A stretch of DNA of 60,866 nt, filler included, from Ionaspis alba (lineage: Eukaryota): NCBI GenBank assembly GCA_964255285.1. It is 7 parts of 7 records of this genome, joined end to end, with 100 filler letters (N's around TTAATTAATTAA, not from the genome) between each part and the next. Parts side by side here need not be neighbours in the genome. Positions count along the whole stretch, not along the records: positions 1 to 8,627 come from CAXUUL010000722.1; 6 more parts are not named here. The stretch is one strand, 5' to 3'. Below the pieces are notes generated by a model, which was not told the DNA's origin, ran no database searches, and saw only the letters and a program-made list of their open reading frames with translations. This document shows, piece by piece, positions 1 to 39,591 of the stretch (its first letter is position 1; the number at the start of each line of letters is the position of its first letter). The position numbers were made by a program, and so were the translations under genes.

Positions 1-216
1 GTGGAGAAGGTCAATGAGGAGGGGAGGAAGGGGGTGAGGGAGTTGAGGGCGGAGATGCAGGCGAGGAAGGAGAGGTTGGTGAGGAGGTGGAGGCTGCAGG
101 AGGAGATTGAGAGGTGGAGGTTGAGGGATGAGATTGGGGAGGTGTTTGCGCCGTTGCCGGAGATTGAGTGGCCGGATGAGGAGGAGGAGGGGGAAGTGGA
201 TGAGTTGGATGGATAA
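1..216 (+). CDS. 3' end of a hypothetical charged (coiled-coil-like) protein, 5'-truncated at window start
   Basis: Frame is open from base 1 to TAA at 214-216; E/R-rich helical composition with an acidic tail; no recognisable motif. Confidence 0.35.
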   Translation: MEKVNEEGRKGVRELRAEMQARKERLVRRWRLQEEIERWRLRDEIGEVFAPLPEIEWPDEEEEGEVDELDG

Positions 217-582
217 GGAGCACGACGGGATAAGGGGTGGAGGAGAGAGAGCTGTGAGAGCTTCGGGTGATGGGGTGGACCGTTTGTCGTGAGGAGCTTT
301 ACCTGGAGTAGAGGCTTGCAGGAACTTAGAATATACCCATGGAAAAGGGGAGCCGTGATGTTGCCTGATAAATGAGGCTCTACATCACGGGGCCGTCCAT
401 ATAGATACGACAGATGCGCTTAGAATAGGATTTTTCACCAATGCTTGATACCATTCTGATCGCATCAGCAATCTTAGTACTATGCACTGTTATCAGATCC
501 AGCACATCAATCCAGACATCTGCAATACCTGCGCGCTTTTTCAAACAAAAGCTCCGTATCAGCCCCAGCCAACCTCACCCCT

Positions 583-3295
583 TCATCCCAGCTTCTCAAA
601 CCTCTCCTTCGCCTTATCCCTCGTCCTCTCCAAGAACCCCTCATAACCCCCCTTCGTATTCCTCTCCGCCTCCTCAACCGCATCTCCCATCTTCCCACCC
701 TGTGCCCCGAGTCCCACACCCTGCACATACATCTCCGTGGCAATAGGCGCCGTCATGCCTTTCCCCGTTGCGCCAAGCCCTTCACCCGCAGCCCAGCCCA
801 TCTTGCCCAGAAGGGACGCACCTTTCGACGGTGCGGGCGGCGCATCGATCTCTTCGCTCGTGTCTTTCGGAGCAGGCGATTGTGACGTTGCGGTCTTCTT
901 CATGGGGAGCGAGACTTTCTTGGACGCTCCGAACGCGGCGCGACGTTCTTTGGCGCGATCGCGGTACTCGGGGGTGTCTTCTTCAAGAGGAGGTGGCAAA
1001 CCTGCTTTGACCATTTTTGCAACAGCTTTGGTCTTGAGGTCTGAGCTCTGTAGATTGTCGCGATGGAGTTGACTTAGACGCTCGTGTTTGTTGACTTCGG
1101 CTTCGGATTTGAACTGTCGGGAGCAGAGGTAGCAGCAGTTCTTGGTTGGGTCGGCAAAGGAAGCTGTGGGAGTGGATGATGACTCTGATGTCGTTGATGG
1201 CTTTGACGGCGGTTTGAGTTTTCCAGGCTCAGTCTCGTCGGCGTCGGCGTCACTGGTGTCTTGAGGCTTCACGCCGTGTAGCTCTGCGTGGCGATTGCTC
1301 CAGAATTGGAGGTGGGCAGGAGCGGTCTGTTCGAGTAAGCGACAGTCAATTCAGGGAGGACACTTGAGCAATCCTTACCTTCTTCTGCTTACTCGTATCC
1401 TTCACTTCAGCCTTTCGCTTCTTGGTCTTTGGTTCTGTTTCCTTTCCTGGTGCTACCAACCCTTCCCTTTCCGCTGCGACGGCAGCTTGATCTGCAGCAG
1501 ATTTGACACGAGTATCATTGAACTTCGATGAGTCTTCTTGTGGTGGAGCTGACACGACTAGCTCACTGACAAAGGCGTCTTCGTCCCAATAAGCCAGTCT
1601 GATAGCAGTGTTGCTCAGTGGGCTAAATGTAAACTGCTCGTGCCCCACGACAGGATTGAGAACGGGAACGAATACTCCAGCATGGATGTAGCAGACGCCA
1701 ACTGGTTTCGAAGAAATCGTGAATTTCTCGAAGGAATTGAAGCGGACCAGTGCAGCTTGAGCGTCCTATCATTGTTGGTTAGTGCAAGCTAGAAGTGGTT
1801 TTGCAGTTTGGACTCACATCCACAGAGGCAAATTCTGCAAAACCATAACGCCAGCTCTCATTGGTTCTTCTGTCACGAACGAGTAATACCCTGCGTAAAG
1901 TTCCCTCTTTTGCACCAAGATTGGCATCACCAGTAGTGGAAGCAACCTTGGCATTGGTCTTTTTCGACGATCCTACAGCCGTTGAAGTTGCTCCACCACT
2001 TGGTTTGTAGAGTTTGGCAGCACCCTTGGCAAGAAGATCTTCGCTCACGGTGGGTTCAAGACCTCGAAGGAGCAGGAACTGAGATGGTGCTCCATTTGGT
2101 GAGGCGTCACTGTCTCCATTGTTGAGGAACTCCGACGGCTTTGCCTGAGTTGTCCTACCTTGTCCAGCCGTGTCTTCTCTGGTCAGAATTGGCTTGGCAG
2201 AAAGAATCAAAGGTCCAGCTTACCGATGTGTGGAGCATGGCATTTGAAACACATCTTGCGACCTGGAAAATTGGCAAAAGTGCACTAACGTGATCGTCGT
2301 AAGCATCAAAGGTGGATAATGAATCATAAACAAGGGACTCACAATCCTGCATGTCCATTCGCCTTCTGCCTTTTCTGCACGACTTCGGTCGTCTCGTTCT
2401 CGGCTGAAAGCCACCCGTACCTTTGCTGCTTCTTCGTCACCATCCTCTGAACCTTTACCATAGAGGTATATTATTGGGTAACTGCGCTCCAGGAAAGACT
2501 TGGACTTTTCAACGCTTGGAAACCTCAAGAAGCCAAATCCACGTGACACTTCTATGGTGATGTTAGTAATGACAGGAAAGGGCTTTTAGTGAGGAATCAC
2601 TAACTCGTCTGTCGATCTCGGATGACTCTTACATCATCAAGGTCATGGACGTTATGAAATTGTTTCAATTCCTTTGATATCTGTAACCTCAAGCATTGAC
2701 CGAAGACCGGTCATATGCCATGCCTTAGCCAGGTTTCCCATGTAAACGTCGAATGACACTTAGGCTCAGCTCGTGGTAGAAGTGGAGAGTTCGAGGGTCA
2801 TGTGTTCTGGTAGGTTGGAGGGGTGGTGGCCAACGTCTTCTTCAGTCATATCCTGTGGCAGTCCGTCCATCATGACTTCTCGGCTAGGTGGACCACCATA
2901 ATATGGCGATCTGTCCCTCCGTGGACTTCGGCTTCCGCTTCGATCATCGTAACCAGGAGATCTATATCCTTCGCGATCTCTATCTCGATATCCGCCTTGT
3001 GGTCTGGACCGCATCGGCGGTGAGCGTCCACGTTGATAGCTATCGTAGTCTCTCTGGTTGTCTCTATCTCGTCGGATATCCCACTCACGAACACTGGCTA
3101 GGTCATTGCGTCCAGGTTGCATTCCGCGGGGTGGAGTCCTTGACCGGTCTTTGCAGAGCCAGAATTAGCAGACGCGCAAAGTAGCAGAGAGTCTCATCCT
3201 GTCATTCGATTACCATGCGGAGGTGTGTATCTTCTAGGTGAAGGCGATTTTCTATGGTATGAGTCCCTCGGGGAATAACGGTCGTCGTAAGACAT
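583..3295 (-). CDS. RBM5/RBM10-like RNA-binding splicing regulator (RRM, RanBP2-type Zn finger, RRM, C2H2 Zn finger, G-patch), multi-exon
   Basis: ATG at 3295 (MSYDDRYSPR, RS/RD-rich); intron 3213-3149 joins in frame to the next exon; RNP1 motifs SRGFGFLRF and WRYGFAEF; WTCRI..C Zn finger split by an intron; CYLCSRQF..HERLSQLH C2H2; G-patch KGASLLGKMGWAAGEGLG. Confidence 0.9.
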
Positions 3296-3651
3296 GTGGT
3301 TCCTGTCGTTACCTGCTTGAGAAGGCATTTGTTTGTAATTTCGAACACTTCCGTCAGTTTCGTTCTCAGACCGCATGTATGCCATGGCTCGTGAGGTCCA
3401 GACCAAATTAAGAAGAGAATGAGGTGATTGTTTTGAGAGAGAAATCTAATTAAAGTAATGAGTGAAGACCATCTAGGAAGCGGGGAGTTGGGATGGGAAG
3501 GTGAAGCGCAAGCGACCACAAAGAAAGTTTAGCTCGCCCAGGGCGCGACTCACGGGTCTCACAACAACATCGTAGATCCTTATTCAATAATCTCCTGAAG
3601 TTTTGAGGAGGGTCAGAAGTTCGATCGTCTACCATTCACTATTTGATCGAC

Positions 3652-4277
3652 ATGTCGGTTGGATCAGTTTCTTATGTAGCGTCTTCATTTGCTAGTATGC
3701 TACCTGAAGCACCGTCAGAACAGCCAAAGCCTTGTAGCCTGCAAGAGCCTTATATACATGTCGAGCTTACGCATGATCTCCTTGATGCCAGAATTGTTAT
3801 GAATAGAGTCCGGAGTTCTCAGGCTGGTGCTATTGTACTCTTTGCTGGCACGAAACCTGTCGTTGTTCTCGTGGCTTCCTATAACTGACCTGCTTTGCAG
3901 GCACAACTCGAGACAATTTTGACGGAAAGCCTGTTAAAGAATTACAATACTCTGCATACGCTCCACTTGCTCTAAGAACCATGCTCTCAATAGCTCAAGC
4001 AGTAAAACAGAAGCACGAGCTGACAGCAATCTCCATGATTCATCGTCTTGGTGTGGTTCCTATTGGCGAGGAGAGTATATTGATTGCCGTTTCATCGCCT
4101 CATCGTCAAGCAGCGTGGAAGGCTGGCGAAGAAGCATTAGAGGAGTGTAAAGCTAAGGTTGAGGTTTGGAAACTAGAAGAATTCGATGGTGAAGAAGGCG
4201 GTATATGGCGTGCCAATAGAGATGGCGCCGTCGGGGCTCCTTTGACTGAAAGAGAGCCAGTAGTGCAGAAGGGATGA
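3652..4277 (+). CDS. cnxH: Molybdopterin synthase catalytic (large) subunit, MoaE/MOCS2B family; 2 exons
   Basis: Spliced product reads GAIVLFAG-TTRDNFDGKPVKELQYSAY...HRLGVVPIGEESILIAVSSPHRQAAW..EECKAKVEVWKLE, typical of MoaE. Needs intron 3848-3900. Start is ATG 3652 or 3697. Confidence 0.92.
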
Positions 4278-4428
4278 AGTGTTGGCTACGGTTTAGCGTA
4301 TTCAGTAGGACTCCGATTTCTTTATGCTTCTATCATACGCAGGTCTTGAATTGAGCCTGGACTGTTACCATCTCCTCATTGTTGTTTTGCGGGAGATGCT
4401 AGAGCTGATAGTGCAATTAAACGGAAGC

Positions 4429-4745
4429 AAAAAGTAACGTTACCAATGGTAGGGGTTGAACTCTGAGCCTGCTGGTGACAGAGCCCAAACCCTAACCTCC
4501 CGCGATCAAACTCGAAAACGGCAAAAAACCGAGCCGAAGCGGTCACGCAGTGCTGTGCAAACGACAGGTACGATAAGCGGTTCGTTTACTCGGGGAAAAC
4601 CCCTAGCTGGCTTGCAAGGAGGTTTTCATACCGGCAGAGGAAGCACCGGGCAAGGCCCCTGGCGCACGAAGCAACCAGGATGGCTCCCGGGTCCAGACTG
4701 GCGAACGAGGGCTGCGGTGCCAGCGGCCGGTACCCCTCTTCGAAT
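4429..4745 (-). ncRNA. Candidate structured non-coding RNA, family unassigned
   Basis: Intergenic between two convergent genes; at least six helices with G-U pairs that only work on the minus strand; upstream TATA; T-runs at 4528-4523 and 4433-4429. Boundaries are approximate. Confidence 0.55.
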
Positions 4746-4768
4746 TGATAATAGGCATAGCCCTATTG

Positions 4769-4779
4769 TATAATATATA
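4769..4779 (-). promoter_or_regulatory. TATA-like element upstream of the candidate ncRNA
   Basis: Minus strand reads TATATATTATA about 30 nt upstream of the first helix (4739); no protein-coding start nearby. Confidence 0.45.
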
Positions 4780-5101
4780 CCAACCATTAGCATGAACGGG
4801 GATTATAGGGCTGAGCTTGTTTGGAGCCTCACCCTTAAAGTCAACACCTTGGCCAAGAGATAGCACAGTACCCTAACATGGACTTTACGGTATGATCATC
4901 ATATTCAGAGCTGCTTACCATACCTTTCATAGTTTAAAGACGTCGGTCCATCATGTAATAACGCGTAGGGGCTATGGATTTCTCGGATTGCTTCCTCCCC
5001 GTGAATTTAATTCAACCATCTTATTGATCTATCTTATTCATTACATTGACGTCAGGAACGACTCGGCATAGTGTGCAGGCTAAGATATTCATTGCCTAAT
5101 A

Positions 5102-6095
5102 CTACGTTGATAGTACTTTCTCTATTCTCCCTTTCTCTTGCATCCTTCGCTCCACACCTTCGATCCTATTCCCGTCTCCTCCAACAACGACCACTCTCTC
5201 CAACTTCCCATCCTTGCTTATCGTCACTCTTCCTATCATTCCTCCACCCCACTCAATTCCCATCTCCAATGCCTCTGCGTCCACTGCACTCACATTCTTG
5301 ACTTCAGTCTCGCCTCCACCTTCACTCCTTCCCACATCCGCGCCGTTACTCAAACTTATGATGGCGTCTTGACGTTTATGATAAGAAGCAATCTCGCCAC
5401 GAAGCTCCCGAACAAATCGAGTAAGGTCTTGGAGCTTGTGCTGCTTGTCGCTCTCAGCACTTAAACGCGGCGTAAATGGAATGTATTTTGCCGCGAGAGC
5501 ATGAAGAGGTATGCAAGAGGGAATCGTGTGACGGTGGATGCGGAGAGATGAGGAGGAAGGTTGCGGACGGTGAAGAAGAAGGTAGTAAGGGGTTAAGAAG
5601 GTTTTGGAATCTAGATGATGAGGACAACCAGTTGGACAAATATGGTATATAGTACATGATTGCGTGCTTACGCTGCGAGAACGCTTCGATCCTGATTCCC
5701 ACAATCCGTCCATCGTCGACGGCATGAGGATCCGGGTCTCTGGACTCAAACAAAGTGGCCCCAGCACACATGCGATAGAGGTCCTCAGTGTTCTGACGGT
5801 TCTGCTCTTTAATGCGCGCTTCGAGCTTCTGGACACGAGTGGTCCTGTCAATGGAGTGCTTTGGAGTGCTTTTGATCCAGTGAACAAGCCGTTGGGAGGA
5901 AGGGGACGAGAGAAAGGCGGCTGTTACGGTTGCACGACGGCGCGCAAGTTTCTTGACTACAAGCTCGATCAGCTAGCTACTGATTTGGCGTTTTGGTCAA
6001 GAGAACAAACTCTGTTCCCGAACAAGTATGATCTCGGCGTCGAGGGAAGCTGTCGTAGGTTGGGTCTCTGGAACCACAGACTGAGTATGCTCCAT
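5102..6095 (-). CDS. CENP-O/Mcm21-family inner kinetochore protein; 3 exons
   Basis: ATG at 6095 (MEHTQ..LDAEI); spliced motifs LYRMCAGATLFESRDPDPHAVDDGRIVGIRIE and PYYLLL..LRIHRHTIPSCIPL..LAAKY..QDLTRFVRELR match fungal CENP-O as I recall it. Confidence 0.8.
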
Positions 6096-6500
6096 CGTTT
6101 GCTGGGAATGCTTGTGGTTTAGCATCAGTAATCAGAGCCAACTGATGTTGTTATCAGACGCGGTCTTGTTGACTTTACACGCGCGCGGATATGATACGGC
6201 CCCTGAAGTCTAAGCAGGTACGACCTTCCCTACCATCATCTGCTTCACATTCTCATACAACTGAAACCCTTAGCACGCTTGTAATGTTGCGAATGATTAT
6301 AGAGATGCAGTTCCACTTCCCACTCATGCTTAGGCTGTTCTCGGTCTAATCGCGTTCCTGCCGCCACCTTCAACTAGCCGAACATCCCTGTCAGTGACGA
6401 CAATTCGGGTTTGTTCCTGACTAAGGAAATTGACAGCAAAAGAACAACGAGGCCACAGCGAAAAGGGTAGCTTGAGCAGAGGCCCTCTCCAACCACATGG

Positions 6501-8627
6501 ATGCCTACCTCATCAGGCGACACTTTCCCTGATATTTCTCACTCTATTCCATTAGAACATTTACTATCGCCTTCACAGCATCAACTCTCGAACCGGGCCA
6601 GCCTCGAAAAGGAGGCATCACATGTCCACAACATCGAGATTGCAGAAATCTCCCCTAGAGAGAGCACCTTGTCAAGAGAGCGCTATATCTCTGAATCGCC
6701 CAACAGTTCAAGACAGCCGCCAGACCTTGTACTTGTCACCGACATCCAGCCAGAAACCCAACGCTTAATCTCTTCTCATCCAGACTACGAGTCTGAACCA
6801 GACTCTTCGCAGATGGGACGCAAACCCCACAAGACGAATGCCACCTCACCAGACCAAGCAAGATCGACTAGCTCTGGCAGTCAGAACGGGCACCTCAACG
6901 GCCATCTCCACGGTCACATCAACGGGCACGCCAACGGCAATATGAACAAAAATGTGGAGATGAGGCGGAAACATATCGCCCTTGATTCCCCGACCCAGAC
7001 AGCAAATCTCATGGGTCGTGAGAGCTTTTCTTTAGATAACGAACCACCACCTACACCTTCACATGCTTCGAACACCGGCTTTTTTGATTTACCAAGACAA
7101 GACCGGAGGAATTTCCTACTTCTAGTCCTACTATATTTCCTCCAAGGAGTGCCGATGGGTTTGGCAGGTGGTTCCGTGCCATTCTTGCTCAAGAAGGCAC
7201 ATCTCTCATACGGACAGATAGGCGTCTTTACACTAGCTTCATATCCGTATTCGTTGAAGCTGCTGTGGAGCCCGATAGTGGACGCTGTTTGGAGTCCTGC
7301 ACTGGGACGAAGGAAGAGCTGGATTCTCCCTATACAGCTTTGTTCGGGACTCGGGATGATATACCTCGGTGGTCGTGCGGCTGAAATGATGAAGGCAGCC
7401 GGCGCAACGGATGGATCTGGAATTTGGAGGTTCACCCTGTGGTGGTTCTTCCTTGTGTTCTTGTGCGCGACCCAGGATATCGCTGTGGATGGCTGGGCAT
7501 TAACACTCCTTTCTCCACCAAATCTATCGTACGCCTCGACCGCCCAAACTGTCGGCTTGACAGCGGGACAGTTCTTGTCATTCACGGTCTTCCTGGCTTT
7601 CAACGCGCCCGAATTTGCCAATCGATGGTTTCGAAAGGTACCGCTTGATGAGGGCGTAATGTCTTTAGGAGGGTATCTTGCCTTCTGGGGATGGGCTTAC
7701 CTCATTGTTACAATCGGACTTGCAATCATGAAGCGGGAAGAGAAGACCAAAGAGCGAGATGGTATAATGACAGTCTATCGAAGCATGTGGGGAATACTCA
7801 AATTACGCAACATCCAGAGCATTATCATCATCCATCTCATTGCTAAGCTTGGGTTCCAAGCCAACGACGCAGCCACGAATCTCAAGTTACTGGACAAGGG
7901 CTTCAGCCAGGAGGACATGGCATTGACGGTTCTCATCGACTTTCCGTTCGAGATTAGCCTTGGCTATTATGCCGGAAGATGGTCGACTGCCTACCCGCCA
8001 ATTCATGTCTGGTGCTGGGGATTTATCGGGAGACTTGTGGCGGCGGTCATAGCTCAAGCAATTGTTCTCATATTCCCCAAAGACGGTGTCCAGACATGGT
8101 ATCTCTTGAGTGTCATTTGCTCTCATATTTTCTCAACCTTTACCAATACGGTCATGTTCGTCGCCATCAGCGCATTCCATGCTAAGATCTCAGACCCAGC
8201 GATTGGTGGCACGTACATGACACTTCTCGCAACGTGAGCTTCCCCAATCGCAGCCTATTTATGGTTTTAGACTGCTAATAATATCCAGTGTTTCGAATCT
8301 TGGAGGCACATTTCCTCGTTTCTTTATCCTTAAGCTCATCGATTACTTCAGCATCGCTACCTGCAGTCCCCCTCTCAAACCGCCGACGACCCTCAAACCA
8401 GGCGTTTCACCAATCACTTCCGCCTTCTCATGTGTAGTCGAAGCCGAGAAAGACCGATGTAGGGCTGCTGGTGGGGTCTGTGAGACCTCAAGAGACGGTT
8501 ACTATGTCATGAATGTGGTCTGCGTGATTATAGGTGTAGTGACATTCTGGAGCTATATAAGACCCGCAGCCCGGCGGCTACAGGCATTGCCGCTAAGAGC
8601 TTGGAGACTGAGTCCGGAATATGGGAC
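6501..8627 (+). CDS. Acetyl-CoA transporter 1 (SLC33A1/ACATN family, MFS); last codons cut by the contig end
   Basis: Motifs LYFLQGVPMGL, YPYSLKLLWSPIVD, GRRKSWI, CATQDIAVDGWAL, DPAIGGTYMTLLAT; intron 8234-8288, then VSNLGGTFPRFFIL..DGYY; no stop before the linker. Start could be 6501 or 6813. Confidence 0.92.
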
Positions 8628-12143: not shown

Positions 12144-12425
12144 GGACAAGAAAATCTCTCTCCCTTTATCCTTCCAGCACCGAACTCGCACCAAGCTCGT
12201 ATCATTCCACAAACCCTTCTCTGCAGTACCACTTCCGGAAGCTGTCAAATATCTCCCCGCCGCATTCCTCAAGGTCAGCAGCCGCCTTCTCCGGATGTAC
12301 CTGCCTCAAGCAAAGGCGGTGAAGCAAGCTAATTCGACCCCATCAAGGCAAACCTCCGAAGCCTCCTCTCGAAGAGATCATCAGCCTTTCCAAGCCAGAC
12401 CACCACCACCACTTAGTCCCCAAAT

Positions 12426-12746
12426 ATGTGCAACTGGGAGCGCATCACTTACACCTGCGGGCACGTAGAACACCGGCGAATGTCCTATTGCCACTTCACT
12501 CGTAACGACCCCAGGCACCAACACTTCGGCGTCCATGCCGAAAGGGTCAAAACTCAGGAGACTATCGTTTGCGATAAATGTGCGAATGCGGCTGCTGCGG
12601 CTGCTGCGGCTGCGGCTGCTCAACAAGGAGGCCAGCAACAGGGAGACCAGCAACAGGGAGGCCAGCAACAGGGAGGCCAGCAACAATGGGGGCAGCAACA
12701 GGGAGGCCAGCAACAGGGGGGCCAGCAACAATGGGGGCAGCAATGA
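12426..12746 (+). CDS. Small 106-aa protein: Cys/His putative metal-binding domain, poly-Ala and Q/G-rich repeat tail
   Basis: MCNWERITYTCGH..SYCHFTRNDPRHQHFGV..CDKC resembles a small uncharacterised Pezizomycotina family (from memory); TATA box and UTR intron upstream; repeats are in frame and end at TGA. Confidence 0.75.
   Translation: MCNWERITYTCGHVEHRRMSYCHFTRNDPRHQHFGVHAERVKTQETIVCDKCANAAAAAAAAAAAQQGGQQQGDQQQGGQQQGGQQQWGQQQGGQQQGGQQQWGQQ
12588..12743 (+). repeat. Coding repeats: 11 Ala codons (12588-12620), then a 15-bp minisatellite x8 (12621-12740)
   Basis: Unit CAACAGGGAGGCCAG with variant CAACAATGGGGGCAG, encoding QQGGQ/QQWGQ. Confidence 0.95.
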
Positions 12747-15116: not shown

Positions 15117-17347
15117 TTATTTCACTGGCGTTTGGACCATCAGCGTCATCAGTGAGTGAGCTACTTCTGCGGCAGCCAGAACAGTCGTCTCTCCCGGATT
15201 GTCATATATCGGAGCGACCTCTACTACATCCGCTCCGACTATGCAAACACCTTCGAGTCCATCTAGGATAGACAATAGCTCGCGAGTCGACCACCCACCA
15301 ACTTCTGCAGTCCCTGTAGCTACATGGTCACTATTAGTCGAAGTTCCACAAAGTGTGAGAGATGCTAAAGGCCATGTGAGGATCGACGATCTGCATATCC
15401 TGGTACGAATTTCTTGGTGCAGGATGCGAGCGACCACTCTTCTGCCAACAGCCGTCCGCAAGTTTCGAGGCCCAAACTGTTGGGACTCTCGTATCACGGA
15501 AATATTATGGAGATCACTTGCTTGCAAGGGAAGCACTCTGAGGGGGCTCGAATCGTAACAGCTGCATACGAAAAGGCCACAAGACGTGGAATGGAATGCT
15601 TACCAGGTGCGAATGCAGGGTCAAGGACGTCAATGTCGACCGATATGTACACATTAGAAGAGCCAACTCTGTCCTTGAGCTTCTGGACTATGCCTTGTAC
15701 GCCAATGCGGTCGATGTCCCTAGCTCTAACGATCTCGAAGCCACAGCGGAGGTCATTACGAAGATCTCCTTTGGGTCTGACGAGTGGTGCACGAATCCCC
15801 GCATGTATCGACGTGTTACGTATCAAGCCTTCTTCGTGCGCAAGGTGTAAGAACGTGCCTACGAAAGCATTACTCGCGGAACATCATCCGAGCCCCTTTG
15901 CATAAGCTCACCGTGGTTAACACCCCTGTGCAGTATGACACATCAACTCAACAAAGATTCATGGTAAGACTTGGAAAAGCTCGGTTCTGACTCACGCGTA
16001 GTGCGATATGCCACCTCCTGGACGCAGTCAGCATTTAAACCTGGTGTGTAAAGTATAGCGACTGACCCAGCACCTTGGGATCCCATGTATCTGCAACGAT
16101 GTCAGCACTTGCAGCGTCGTAGGAGAGGTACATGATAGCGAATATTCATAGGCACGCCTGAGGAGCCTTTGGAGCCTTTTATGACAGACCAATGTGCGAG
16201 TCAAAGTGGATAACAGAAACGCTACCCCAACGGTCGAAAGTGCCTCTCAGTGCAGCTAGAGTGGTTGTATGGTCCCCACCGAGTGTGATGATGCGGGGAA
16301 CCAACGACTTCGAAGTGGTATTGGCAGTTTTGCCCGAGATTACCTCCGCGAAGCGTCAGATGCAAGGCAGCTTTCGAGCACTGCGGCCAAACCATATACT
16401 CGAGGTCTGTGCTTTATGTCATCCAACGTACTTTATGTGCCTTTTCAAGCTGTTTCAAAGCAATTGTATTGTCAAGGAAGGTCAAGGGTGCATCTCCACA
16501 ATCTACGATCTTTGCCCAGCTCTCGAAAATGTTCTCTCCTATTCTCACTCAGCTTCACGCGCTCTCTTTTTCAATACACGTCTATCTTCTGTAGCACAGA
16601 GCTCACCTGTATACACACTCCAGCCAGCTCGAGCCGCCATCCTTCTTGAGCCTTGTCGGATGCCTCCAGGTCCGAACCGGGCTCCTGGTCTCGCCGTTAC
16701 ACCCTAGTATAGACGTCAGCTTACACGATCATGTCGTGTAATCAACACATCTTATGCTGTTGCAAAAATGCCGACTGGACGAAGGATGAGTGCGTCATGT
16801 AGGGGTTGTCGGCAAGTACACAGCCGCCTAGAGTCACACGAGATAGAGAAACAACATCATAACTTCGACAACAAGGTCACAAGCATCGCAAGCTGAGTCA
16901 AATTTGTTTCAAGACGAAGCTGCAATTCTATTATCCAGGCCCAGGCCATCATGGACAGGACAAGTCTAGCTGAAGGGTCTGGCGACGATGTTTGGCGCAT
17001 GGCAGGCGCATTTGATATTCAAAGGCCATTTGATGCCCATAGAGACATACCATGTCTCGAATAGCGGAAAATTGAATGCGCAGCGCAAGCCATAGCAACG
17101 ATCCAATATTGACTTACCGTGTCGAAAGGTGCTCCCAGAACCGCAATATCATATGTATCACTTTTCTCGTCCAGCCCCTCTGCAAAGCATTCAACGTAGT
17201 CCAAATTGGCAAACGTAGTCAGGCCGGCAAAGCGTGAACCAGTGATAATATCAACATTATCCAAGCCCTTGCCAAGAGGTGTTTGACGGACATCAATGGC
17301 TGTCAGGGGGGGAAATGTGATCTCCCGCGCTAAGACAAATGGAAGGA
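15117..17347 (-). CDS. Agmatinase (arginase/ureohydrolase family), many introns, 5'-truncated at the contig end
   Basis: [82 protein letters not shown]; long introns 17117-16704 and 15603-15320. Confidence 0.92.
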
Positions 17348-39492: not shown

Positions 39493-39591
39493 TAGTCCTA
39501 GTGGGGGTCGAACCCACGACATTCGCATAACATTGCCATATAGACGTGAAATCCATATAAGAACGACGCGCTACCACTGCGCCATAGGACT
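39493..39591 (-). tRNA. tRNA-Ile(UAU) with a 27-nt intron (39555-39529)
   Basis: Cloverleaf AGUCCUA/UAGGACU, D arm GCGC-AGUGGUA-GCGC, anticodon loop CU-UAU-A^A, T arm GUGGG-UUCGACC-CCCAC; downstream TTTTTT Pol III terminator. Confidence 0.95.

Follow-up and report, generated by a model that had tools for sequence, protein, structure and literature searches.

An orphan candidate structured RNA in the spacer between cnxH and CENP-O of Ionaspis alba

In yeast, the Tbf1 consensus ARCCCTAA is tied to snoRNA and Ribi promoters, as described in passages of PMC5416754. In A. fumigatus and N. crassa, TBF1 motifs are reported, in part of PMC4138321, to be enriched upstream of ribosomal-protein genes and not of snoRNAs. 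Part of a fungal snoRNA inventory (PMC5824354) treats ACA12 of N. crassa as the snR30 homologue, and Table 1 of PMC7601244 gives m1 and m2 as motifs of the 3' hairpin of snR30/U17. Lecanoromycetes are not among the query genomes that passages of a fungal structured-RNA screen (PMC8216456) describe, and the name is missing from the main text of the snoRNA inventory (PMC5824354).

Here we analyzed a locus of Ionaspis alba (GCA_964255285.1), for which an earlier note had proposed an independently transcribed RNA on the minus strand of 4429-4779. That proposal stays plausible and gains new promoter features; a homologue or covariation was not obtained in 80 fungal cnxH loci. We regard the locus as a reasonable candidate for an orphan ncRNA, with no family assigned and, by the tests run, not H/ACA. 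We lean slightly towards a real, independent ncRNA gene, for which a length of about 245 nt is the most likely, and we give an appreciable, smaller chance to there being no RNA gene at all.

The locus and the predicted fold

Positions 1-8627 of the window (the whole stretch of DNA analyzed, 60,866 nucleotides with filler) are contig C722 of an 18.3-Mb assembly of 1282 contigs. The candidate sits in an 825-nt spacer, on which cnxH (plus strand, ending at 4277) and CENP-O (minus strand, ending at 5102) converge. The closest named relatives of the MoaE protein are from Lecanoromycetes (83-86%). An ATTAAA at 4416, which we take to be a poly(A) signal, places the expected cnxH 3' end near 4416-4440. 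The genes and the predicted parts of the candidate are as follows.

3885..4277, plus: last coding exon of cnxH/MOCS2B (MoaE), converging on the candidate (Pfam PF02391, E 2.5e-31)
5102..5506, minus: last coding exon of CENP-O, upstream of the candidate on the same strand (Pfam PF09496, E 4.4e-22)
4505..4749, minus: candidate RNA core of 245 nt, three arms closed by the terminal helix 4749-4737/4518-4505 (pair probabilities 0.87-0.94; z -2.25, 1/100 shuffles)
4628..4733, minus: arm A, closed by 4733-4726/4635-4628, with a poorly determined interior that contains an alternative 13-bp helix (ensemble folding)
4595..4627, minus: arm B hairpin (p 0.93-0.99)
4529..4593, minus: arm C hairpin, pairing the ACAG of a proposed H box and a CUUCGG element (p 0.87-0.95)
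4523..4528, minus: U6 tract, a possible Pol III terminator, unpaired within the 245-nt fold (sequence, ensemble)
4448..4497, minus: 3' hairpin, whose 5' strand carries a telomere-like 10-mer (z -2.89, 0/200 shuffles)
4429..4433, minus: U5 tract, an alternative 3' end (sequence)

The block is single-copy in the assembly and, as previously described, richer in GC than its surroundings: in 100-nt windows, the GC fraction is 0.53-0.67 within 4450-4749 and 0.37-0.51 in the flanking stretches (4250-4499, 4700-5099). GC content downstream of the candidate TATA is the highest among 19 similar TATA sites. None of the seven reading frames overlapping the block had a Pfam match above the cut-off, and a small-ORF reading, being without Pfam support, was dropped. 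The public runs listed as matching the block are two DNA data sets from one study and include no RNA set; one of the two may be the source, and the other is identical to the block wherever it covers it.

Elsewhere in the window, a gene of the G-patch RBM5-like type lies head to head with cnxH (583-4277); an intron-containing tRNA gene, by eye Ile(UAU), lies at 39493-39591 (minus) and is followed by a T7 terminator tract; and a small ORF at 12417-12746 (plus) encodes an N-terminus rich in Cys and His, with poly-Ala and QQQGG repeats after it. No CENP-O relatives were found in viral and prokaryote collections.

We searched 80 fungal cnxH loci for homologues of the candidate. No match was obtained with blastn and one, at E 0.64, with nhmmer; a single-sequence covariance model recovered only the query in the window and these loci, and had no match across 800 kb of the candidate's own genome. 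Rfam scans of 19 of the 80 loci returned nothing. Because the RBM gene is kept beside cnxH in 18/80 loci and CENP-O in 0/80, so that the CENP-O linkage is broken, and because many loci are short, this search neither shows nor excludes conservation. One fungal cnxH locus has a T6 tract and a CUUCGG in its convergent spacer, on the minus strand about 400-550 nt downstream of the cnxH match; this stretch matched neither the candidate nor Rfam.

All elements listed in the earlier note were recovered at the places given there, and the fold we prefer is a different one: its terminal helix spans the U6 tract and buries ACAGCA. The CUUCGG at 4539-4534, the U6 tract at 4528-4523, the 3' hairpin strands 4488-4479/4465-4456 and the U5 tract at 4433-4429 are all present as described. 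The complementary strands of the 13-bp helix 4739-4727/4649-4636 also exist, with one bulge, and the helix is displaced in the ensemble over 4760-4429; since forcing its inner pairs costs 3 kcal/mol in the 245-nt unit and 1 in the shorter form, both folds are possible. Likewise, the hairpin strands 4627-4619/4603-4595 and 4589-4582/4564-4557 are where they had been placed, and the GUAAACGA helix is displaced in the ensemble. The ACAGCA at 4556-4551 had been described as single-stranded, but its ACAG is predicted to be paired (p about 0.89, ensemble 4760-4429), and ACAGCA is left unpaired only where the RNA ends near 4550.

Folding stability was compared with shuffled sequences. For the whole 4429-4779 segment, the minus strand reached z -2.12 and the plus strand -1.71. 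The 245-nt unit had z -2.25, and including the 3' hairpin lowered this to -2.52, both with bounds picked after folding. The SRP RNA of the same genome, used as a control, reached -3.27. Among random 245-nt windows of the same sequence, 3/116 reached -2.25, and for minus-strand 220-nt windows slid across the block, z lay between -1.25 and +0.17. The description of the block as highly structured was thus overstated, its z of -2.1 to -2.5 being only marginal; only the 3' hairpin clearly beats its shuffles. Because of this background and the choice of bounds after folding, structure alone is weak evidence, and we treat the modelled stability as weak evidence for an RNA gene.

Of the two lengths suggested before, about 220 and about 310 nt, the first fared poorly: the 220-nt form ending at the U6 tract had z -0.66, no better than shuffles. 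Forms of 245 and about 305 nt fold better, and all of them run through the U6 tract. G-U pairs, which had been said to work on the minus strand only, do favor it, with 11 against 4 on the plus strand over 4749-4505 and 13 against 6 over 4749-4445 (12 against 8 in the SRP control), and the other strand retains the 4-6 pairs counted there.

Promoter-like elements and a proposed transcription unit

The TATA-like element reported at 4779-4769 is present. Around it we found matches to a Tbf1-type motif.

4870..4875, plus: Tbf1-type RCCCTA site 1 (motif match)
4806..4811, minus: Tbf1-type RCCCTA site 2, inverted partner of site 3 (motif match; inverted repeat)
4769..4779, minus: TATA-like element, either a promoter element or a CENP-O 3'-end efficiency element (sequence)
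4760..4765, plus: Tbf1-type RCCCTA site 3, between the TATA and the predicted start (motif match)
4489..4494, plus: fourth RCCCTA site, within the telomere-like 10-mer of the 3' hairpin (4488-4497, plus) (motif match)

Three RCCCTA sites thus fall within 116 bp around the candidate TATA box. Other DNA of the genome (191.6 kb and 798.1 kb, 475 sites) held no such triple cluster within 116 bp, and at least two nearby sites accompanied 0/212 other TATA boxes. The Poisson chance of the cluster is about 6e-5 per TATA window, uncorrected for the motif having been picked after reading the sequence. Since chance would give less than one triple cluster in the DNA searched, we read the background as random and the candidate as an outlier. 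From the TATA to the start of the fold is 30 nt, and the corresponding distances in the same genome are 30 nt for the SRP gene (Rfam start) and 35 nt for U1.

The genome controls do not validate a Tbf1-type promoter class for ncRNA genes. No RCCCTA was found upstream of the MRP, SRP or U1 genes of this genome; AGCCCTA followed by TATATA is not enriched genome-wide (10 matches, against 23 for the reversed control), and 0/8 other loci with this arrangement had an Rfam match. Of 22 pairs of RCCCTA sites (124 frames scanned), a single pair is followed by a ribosome-biogenesis gene (Npa1), and ribosomal-protein genes adjoin none of them. The Npa1 pair, on contig C5, consists of two tandem Tbf1-type sites upstream of Npa1/Urb1. 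Site 3, lying between the TATA and the start, is positioned such that a bound factor could clash with initiation.

The analysis shows the sequence elements and the predicted fold; from these we infer factor binding, polymerase, RNA ends and function as follows. Tentatively, the locus may be a stand-alone minus-strand unit with a Tbf1-type, TATA-containing Pol II promoter, producing an end-paired, three-armed, protein-binding RNA of about 245 nt. A Tbf1-type general regulatory factor would bind the RCCCTA sites and open the promoter; with TBP on the TATA box, RNA polymerase II would start near 4749-4744 and read through the U6 tract. The precursor would reach the 3' hairpin and the U5 tract near 4430 and then be trimmed to about 245 nt, with the terminal helix shielding both ends of the trimmed RNA. 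The absence of guide boxes and of long rRNA complementarity (next section) points to the three-armed RNA acting most likely as a protein-binding scaffold. Co-regulation with ribosome-biogenesis genes, hinted at by analogy through the promoter type, is the weakest step and seems rather improbable.

The alternative that survives best, though we think it unlikely, is that there is no RNA gene: the block would be a GC-rich spacer, arisen by chance or from a decayed single-copy insertion, between the CENP-O and cnxH poly(A) sites, and the TATATA an efficiency element for the CENP-O 3' end. TATATA is a 3'-end efficiency element in yeast. In this genome it occurs about equally behind the ends and before the starts of same-strand ORFs (34 against 38 of 69), so a CENP-O 3'-end role is possible for the candidate TATA. 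The background and sliding-window z values also fit a spacer, as does the finding of no homologue in the 80 loci or in 800 kb of the same genome. However, the triple RCCCTA cluster, the start of the fold at the canonical distance from the TATA and the strand bias would all be unaccounted for. A decayed insertion is further opposed by the terminal inverted arms having no target-site duplication and by the single copy, and a MITE was rejected on the same two counts.

More remote is a TATA-dependent Pol III transcript without A or B boxes, ending after 220 nt at the U6 tract or reading through leakily, which would make the 3' hairpin a milRNA precursor. The TATA is similar to the one at the SRP gene, U6 and U5 tracts are present, no other part folds as well as the 3' hairpin, and neither an A nor a B box consensus occurs in the 245-nt core; milR-1 of N. 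crassa, according to passages of PMC3547838, has TATA-like elements without A/B boxes. Yet the U6-terminated form folds no better than shuffles, and the U6 tract precedes the hairpin and falls within the span of the terminal helix. A TATA..TCAA pattern, tried as an ncRNA marker, was enriched (22 against 5 in the control), yet marked no RNA gene elsewhere (Rfam matches at 0/20 other loci, tRNA matches at 0/21), and we abandoned it.

Still less probable is a structured cis-element of a long CENP-O 3' UTR, 350-670 nt past the stop. The candidate does lie on the CENP-O strand, and conserved 3' UTR structures are known in Pezizomycotina (Table 1 of PMC8216456). Against it stand the promoter-like cluster directly upstream and the overlap that the long form would have with the expected cnxH 3' end.

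Known RNA families and the snR30 lead

Rfam scans of the window and the region gave no credible match, in line with the earlier observation that hallmarks of the known classes are missing. The suggestion of a large H/ACA-like snoRNA failed on geometry. ANANNA occurs only at 4587 and 4556, each partly paired in the preferred fold, and none follows arm A in a single-stranded hinge. The sole ACA in 4749-4429 is the one at 4556, with none near 4505 or 4429 to serve as a terminal ACA, which would need a pocket 14-16 nt above it. A single ANANNA/ACA pair exists (4587, 4556); it spans about 25 nt, and if ACAGCA is taken as the H box, no ACA lies downstream. On these motif positions, an H/ACA reading of the candidate is not supported.

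No C box (RUGAUGA) or D box (CUGA) is present in 4749-4429 on the minus strand. The U3 boxes, defined in part of PMC5832005 as A' TACTY and B AGYGA, were not seen in the candidate by eye, and Rfam gave no U3 match. For RNase P, the CR-I/P4 pattern is absent from both strands and RF00009 gave no match at E 10; genome-wide, an RNase P motif marked 21 loci, and 20 of these were scanned with 0 Rfam matches.

RNase MRP, SRP and U1 identities were rejected, as none gave a local covariance match and the genes lie on contigs C751, C923 and C1195. The U1 snRNA on C1195 scores 56 bits, under the Rfam cut-off of 69.5, with a recognizable 5' end and a TATA 35 nt upstream. The RNase MRP RNA on C751 is 498 nt long, with a long pyrimidine/purine-rich insertion relative to the 266-position model. 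Telomerase RNA (RF02462) was considered for the telomere-like 10-mer at 4488-4497 (plus), and the model match falls on contig C269 instead; there, 15449-16779 probably encodes the telomerase RNA (RF02462, 38 bits), and an 8-mer resembling the template lies about 1.2 kb upstream. Motif resemblances to U1, to an HDV-like ribozyme, to a hammerhead and to a tRNA remnant were also considered, and each was dropped because core motifs are missing or the true gene lies elsewhere. A Moco riboswitch in the cnxH 3' UTR was rejected for its lack of an Rfam match and the weaker folding of the plus strand.

A Watson-Crick complement of at least 10 nt to rRNA was found in none of the four heterologous fungal rDNA pieces tested, of 13 fetched, which cover part of the rRNA. 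The best duplex windows between the candidate and 18S fall, as read by eye, in apparent intron insertions of the heterologous 18S. Thirteen prokaryotic species-genome records contain short contigs that match a fungal rDNA primer, likely contamination, and one of them seems to hold 18S introns. Weak searches of the I. alba assembly recovered no RNase P RNA, U3, snR30 or 18S rDNA, the search for snR30 being too strict for the Neurospora m1 variant; their absence probably reflects incompleteness, introns or the weakness of the searches.

One lead came from N. crassa ACA12 (PMC2780460), in a comparison made by eye in which about 25 RNAs were inspected. The candidate shares with it words at 4710-4700 (11 nt), 4687-4678 (10), 4641-4632 (10) and 4609-4601 (9), and the word at 4641-4632 extends to about 18/21 nt. 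At least three words of at least 10 nt were shared with ACA12 by 0/3040 GC-matched genome segments. Only the last two words (4641-4632, 4609-4601) are colinear with ACA12, and one word is partly present also in CD53, TER and MRP sequences. Exact m1/m2 cores of snR30 are absent from 4200-5110 on either strand, and one-mismatch cores from 4749-4429 on the minus strand. The regions with the 11-nt and the extended words pair with ES6/ES7 of one heterologous ascomycete 18S no better than shuffles (31-134/300). As a similarity of sequence words, the sharing is a lead that stays unexplained.

Least probable of the rivals is an RNA of a known class (snR30/U17, another H/ACA RNA, RNase P or U3) so strongly diverged that Rfam misses it. 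In favor of this reading are the four exact words and the failure to find RNase P, U3 and snR30 elsewhere in the incomplete assembly; against it stand the missing m1, m2, terminal ACA, CR-I/P4 pattern and C, D and A' boxes, the two colinear words only, the many RNAs eyed and the shuffle-like ES6/ES7 pairing. A further reading, for which the odds are rather poor, is that the candidate is a previously undescribed, box-less, three-armed nuclear RNA of lichen-type ascomycetes with a Tbf1-type promoter; it may derive from the variable 5' domains of snR30 or act together with them in assembling ribosomes.

Comparison with described systems

If the preferred reading of a stand-alone unit is true, a 245-nt RNA of this kind without guide boxes would be a new RNA family, and its promoter signature would offer a handle for finding more such RNAs; if the block is not transcribed, it is merely a GC-rich spacer.

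Compared with snR30/U17 of N. crassa, the candidate is similar in length (ACA12 has 296 nt) and in the four words, according to parts of PMC2780460 and PMC5824354, and a predicted local fold over 4655-4545 (z -2.30) leaves a pyrimidine-rich word shared with ACA12 in a loop. It differs in having neither the m1/m2 hairpin nor the ACA tail, and in the partly altered order of the words. With the Pol III precursor of N. crassa milR-1, as passages of PMC3547838 describe it, the candidate shares a TATA without A/B boxes, a hairpin and a poly-T tract. In contrast to milR-1, the U6 tract of the candidate precedes its best hairpin.

The conserved intergenic structures 1-4 of Pezizomycotina (Gao, Jones, Rivas 2021; passages of PMC8216456) are likewise orphan, stand-alone elements without full snoRNA signatures. 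They average 92-144 nt and show covariation in hundreds of genomes; part of the candidate, compared with them by description, could be identical to one of them. The yeast snoRNA genes with Tbf1-marked promoters (Preti et al. 2010, as cited in passages of PMC5416754 and PMC4138321) likewise combine RCCCTA and TATA before an intergenic structured RNA of 200-300 nt. Unlike these genes, the candidate has neither H/ACA nor C/D boxes at working positions, and it carries three RCCCTA sites where they carry one.
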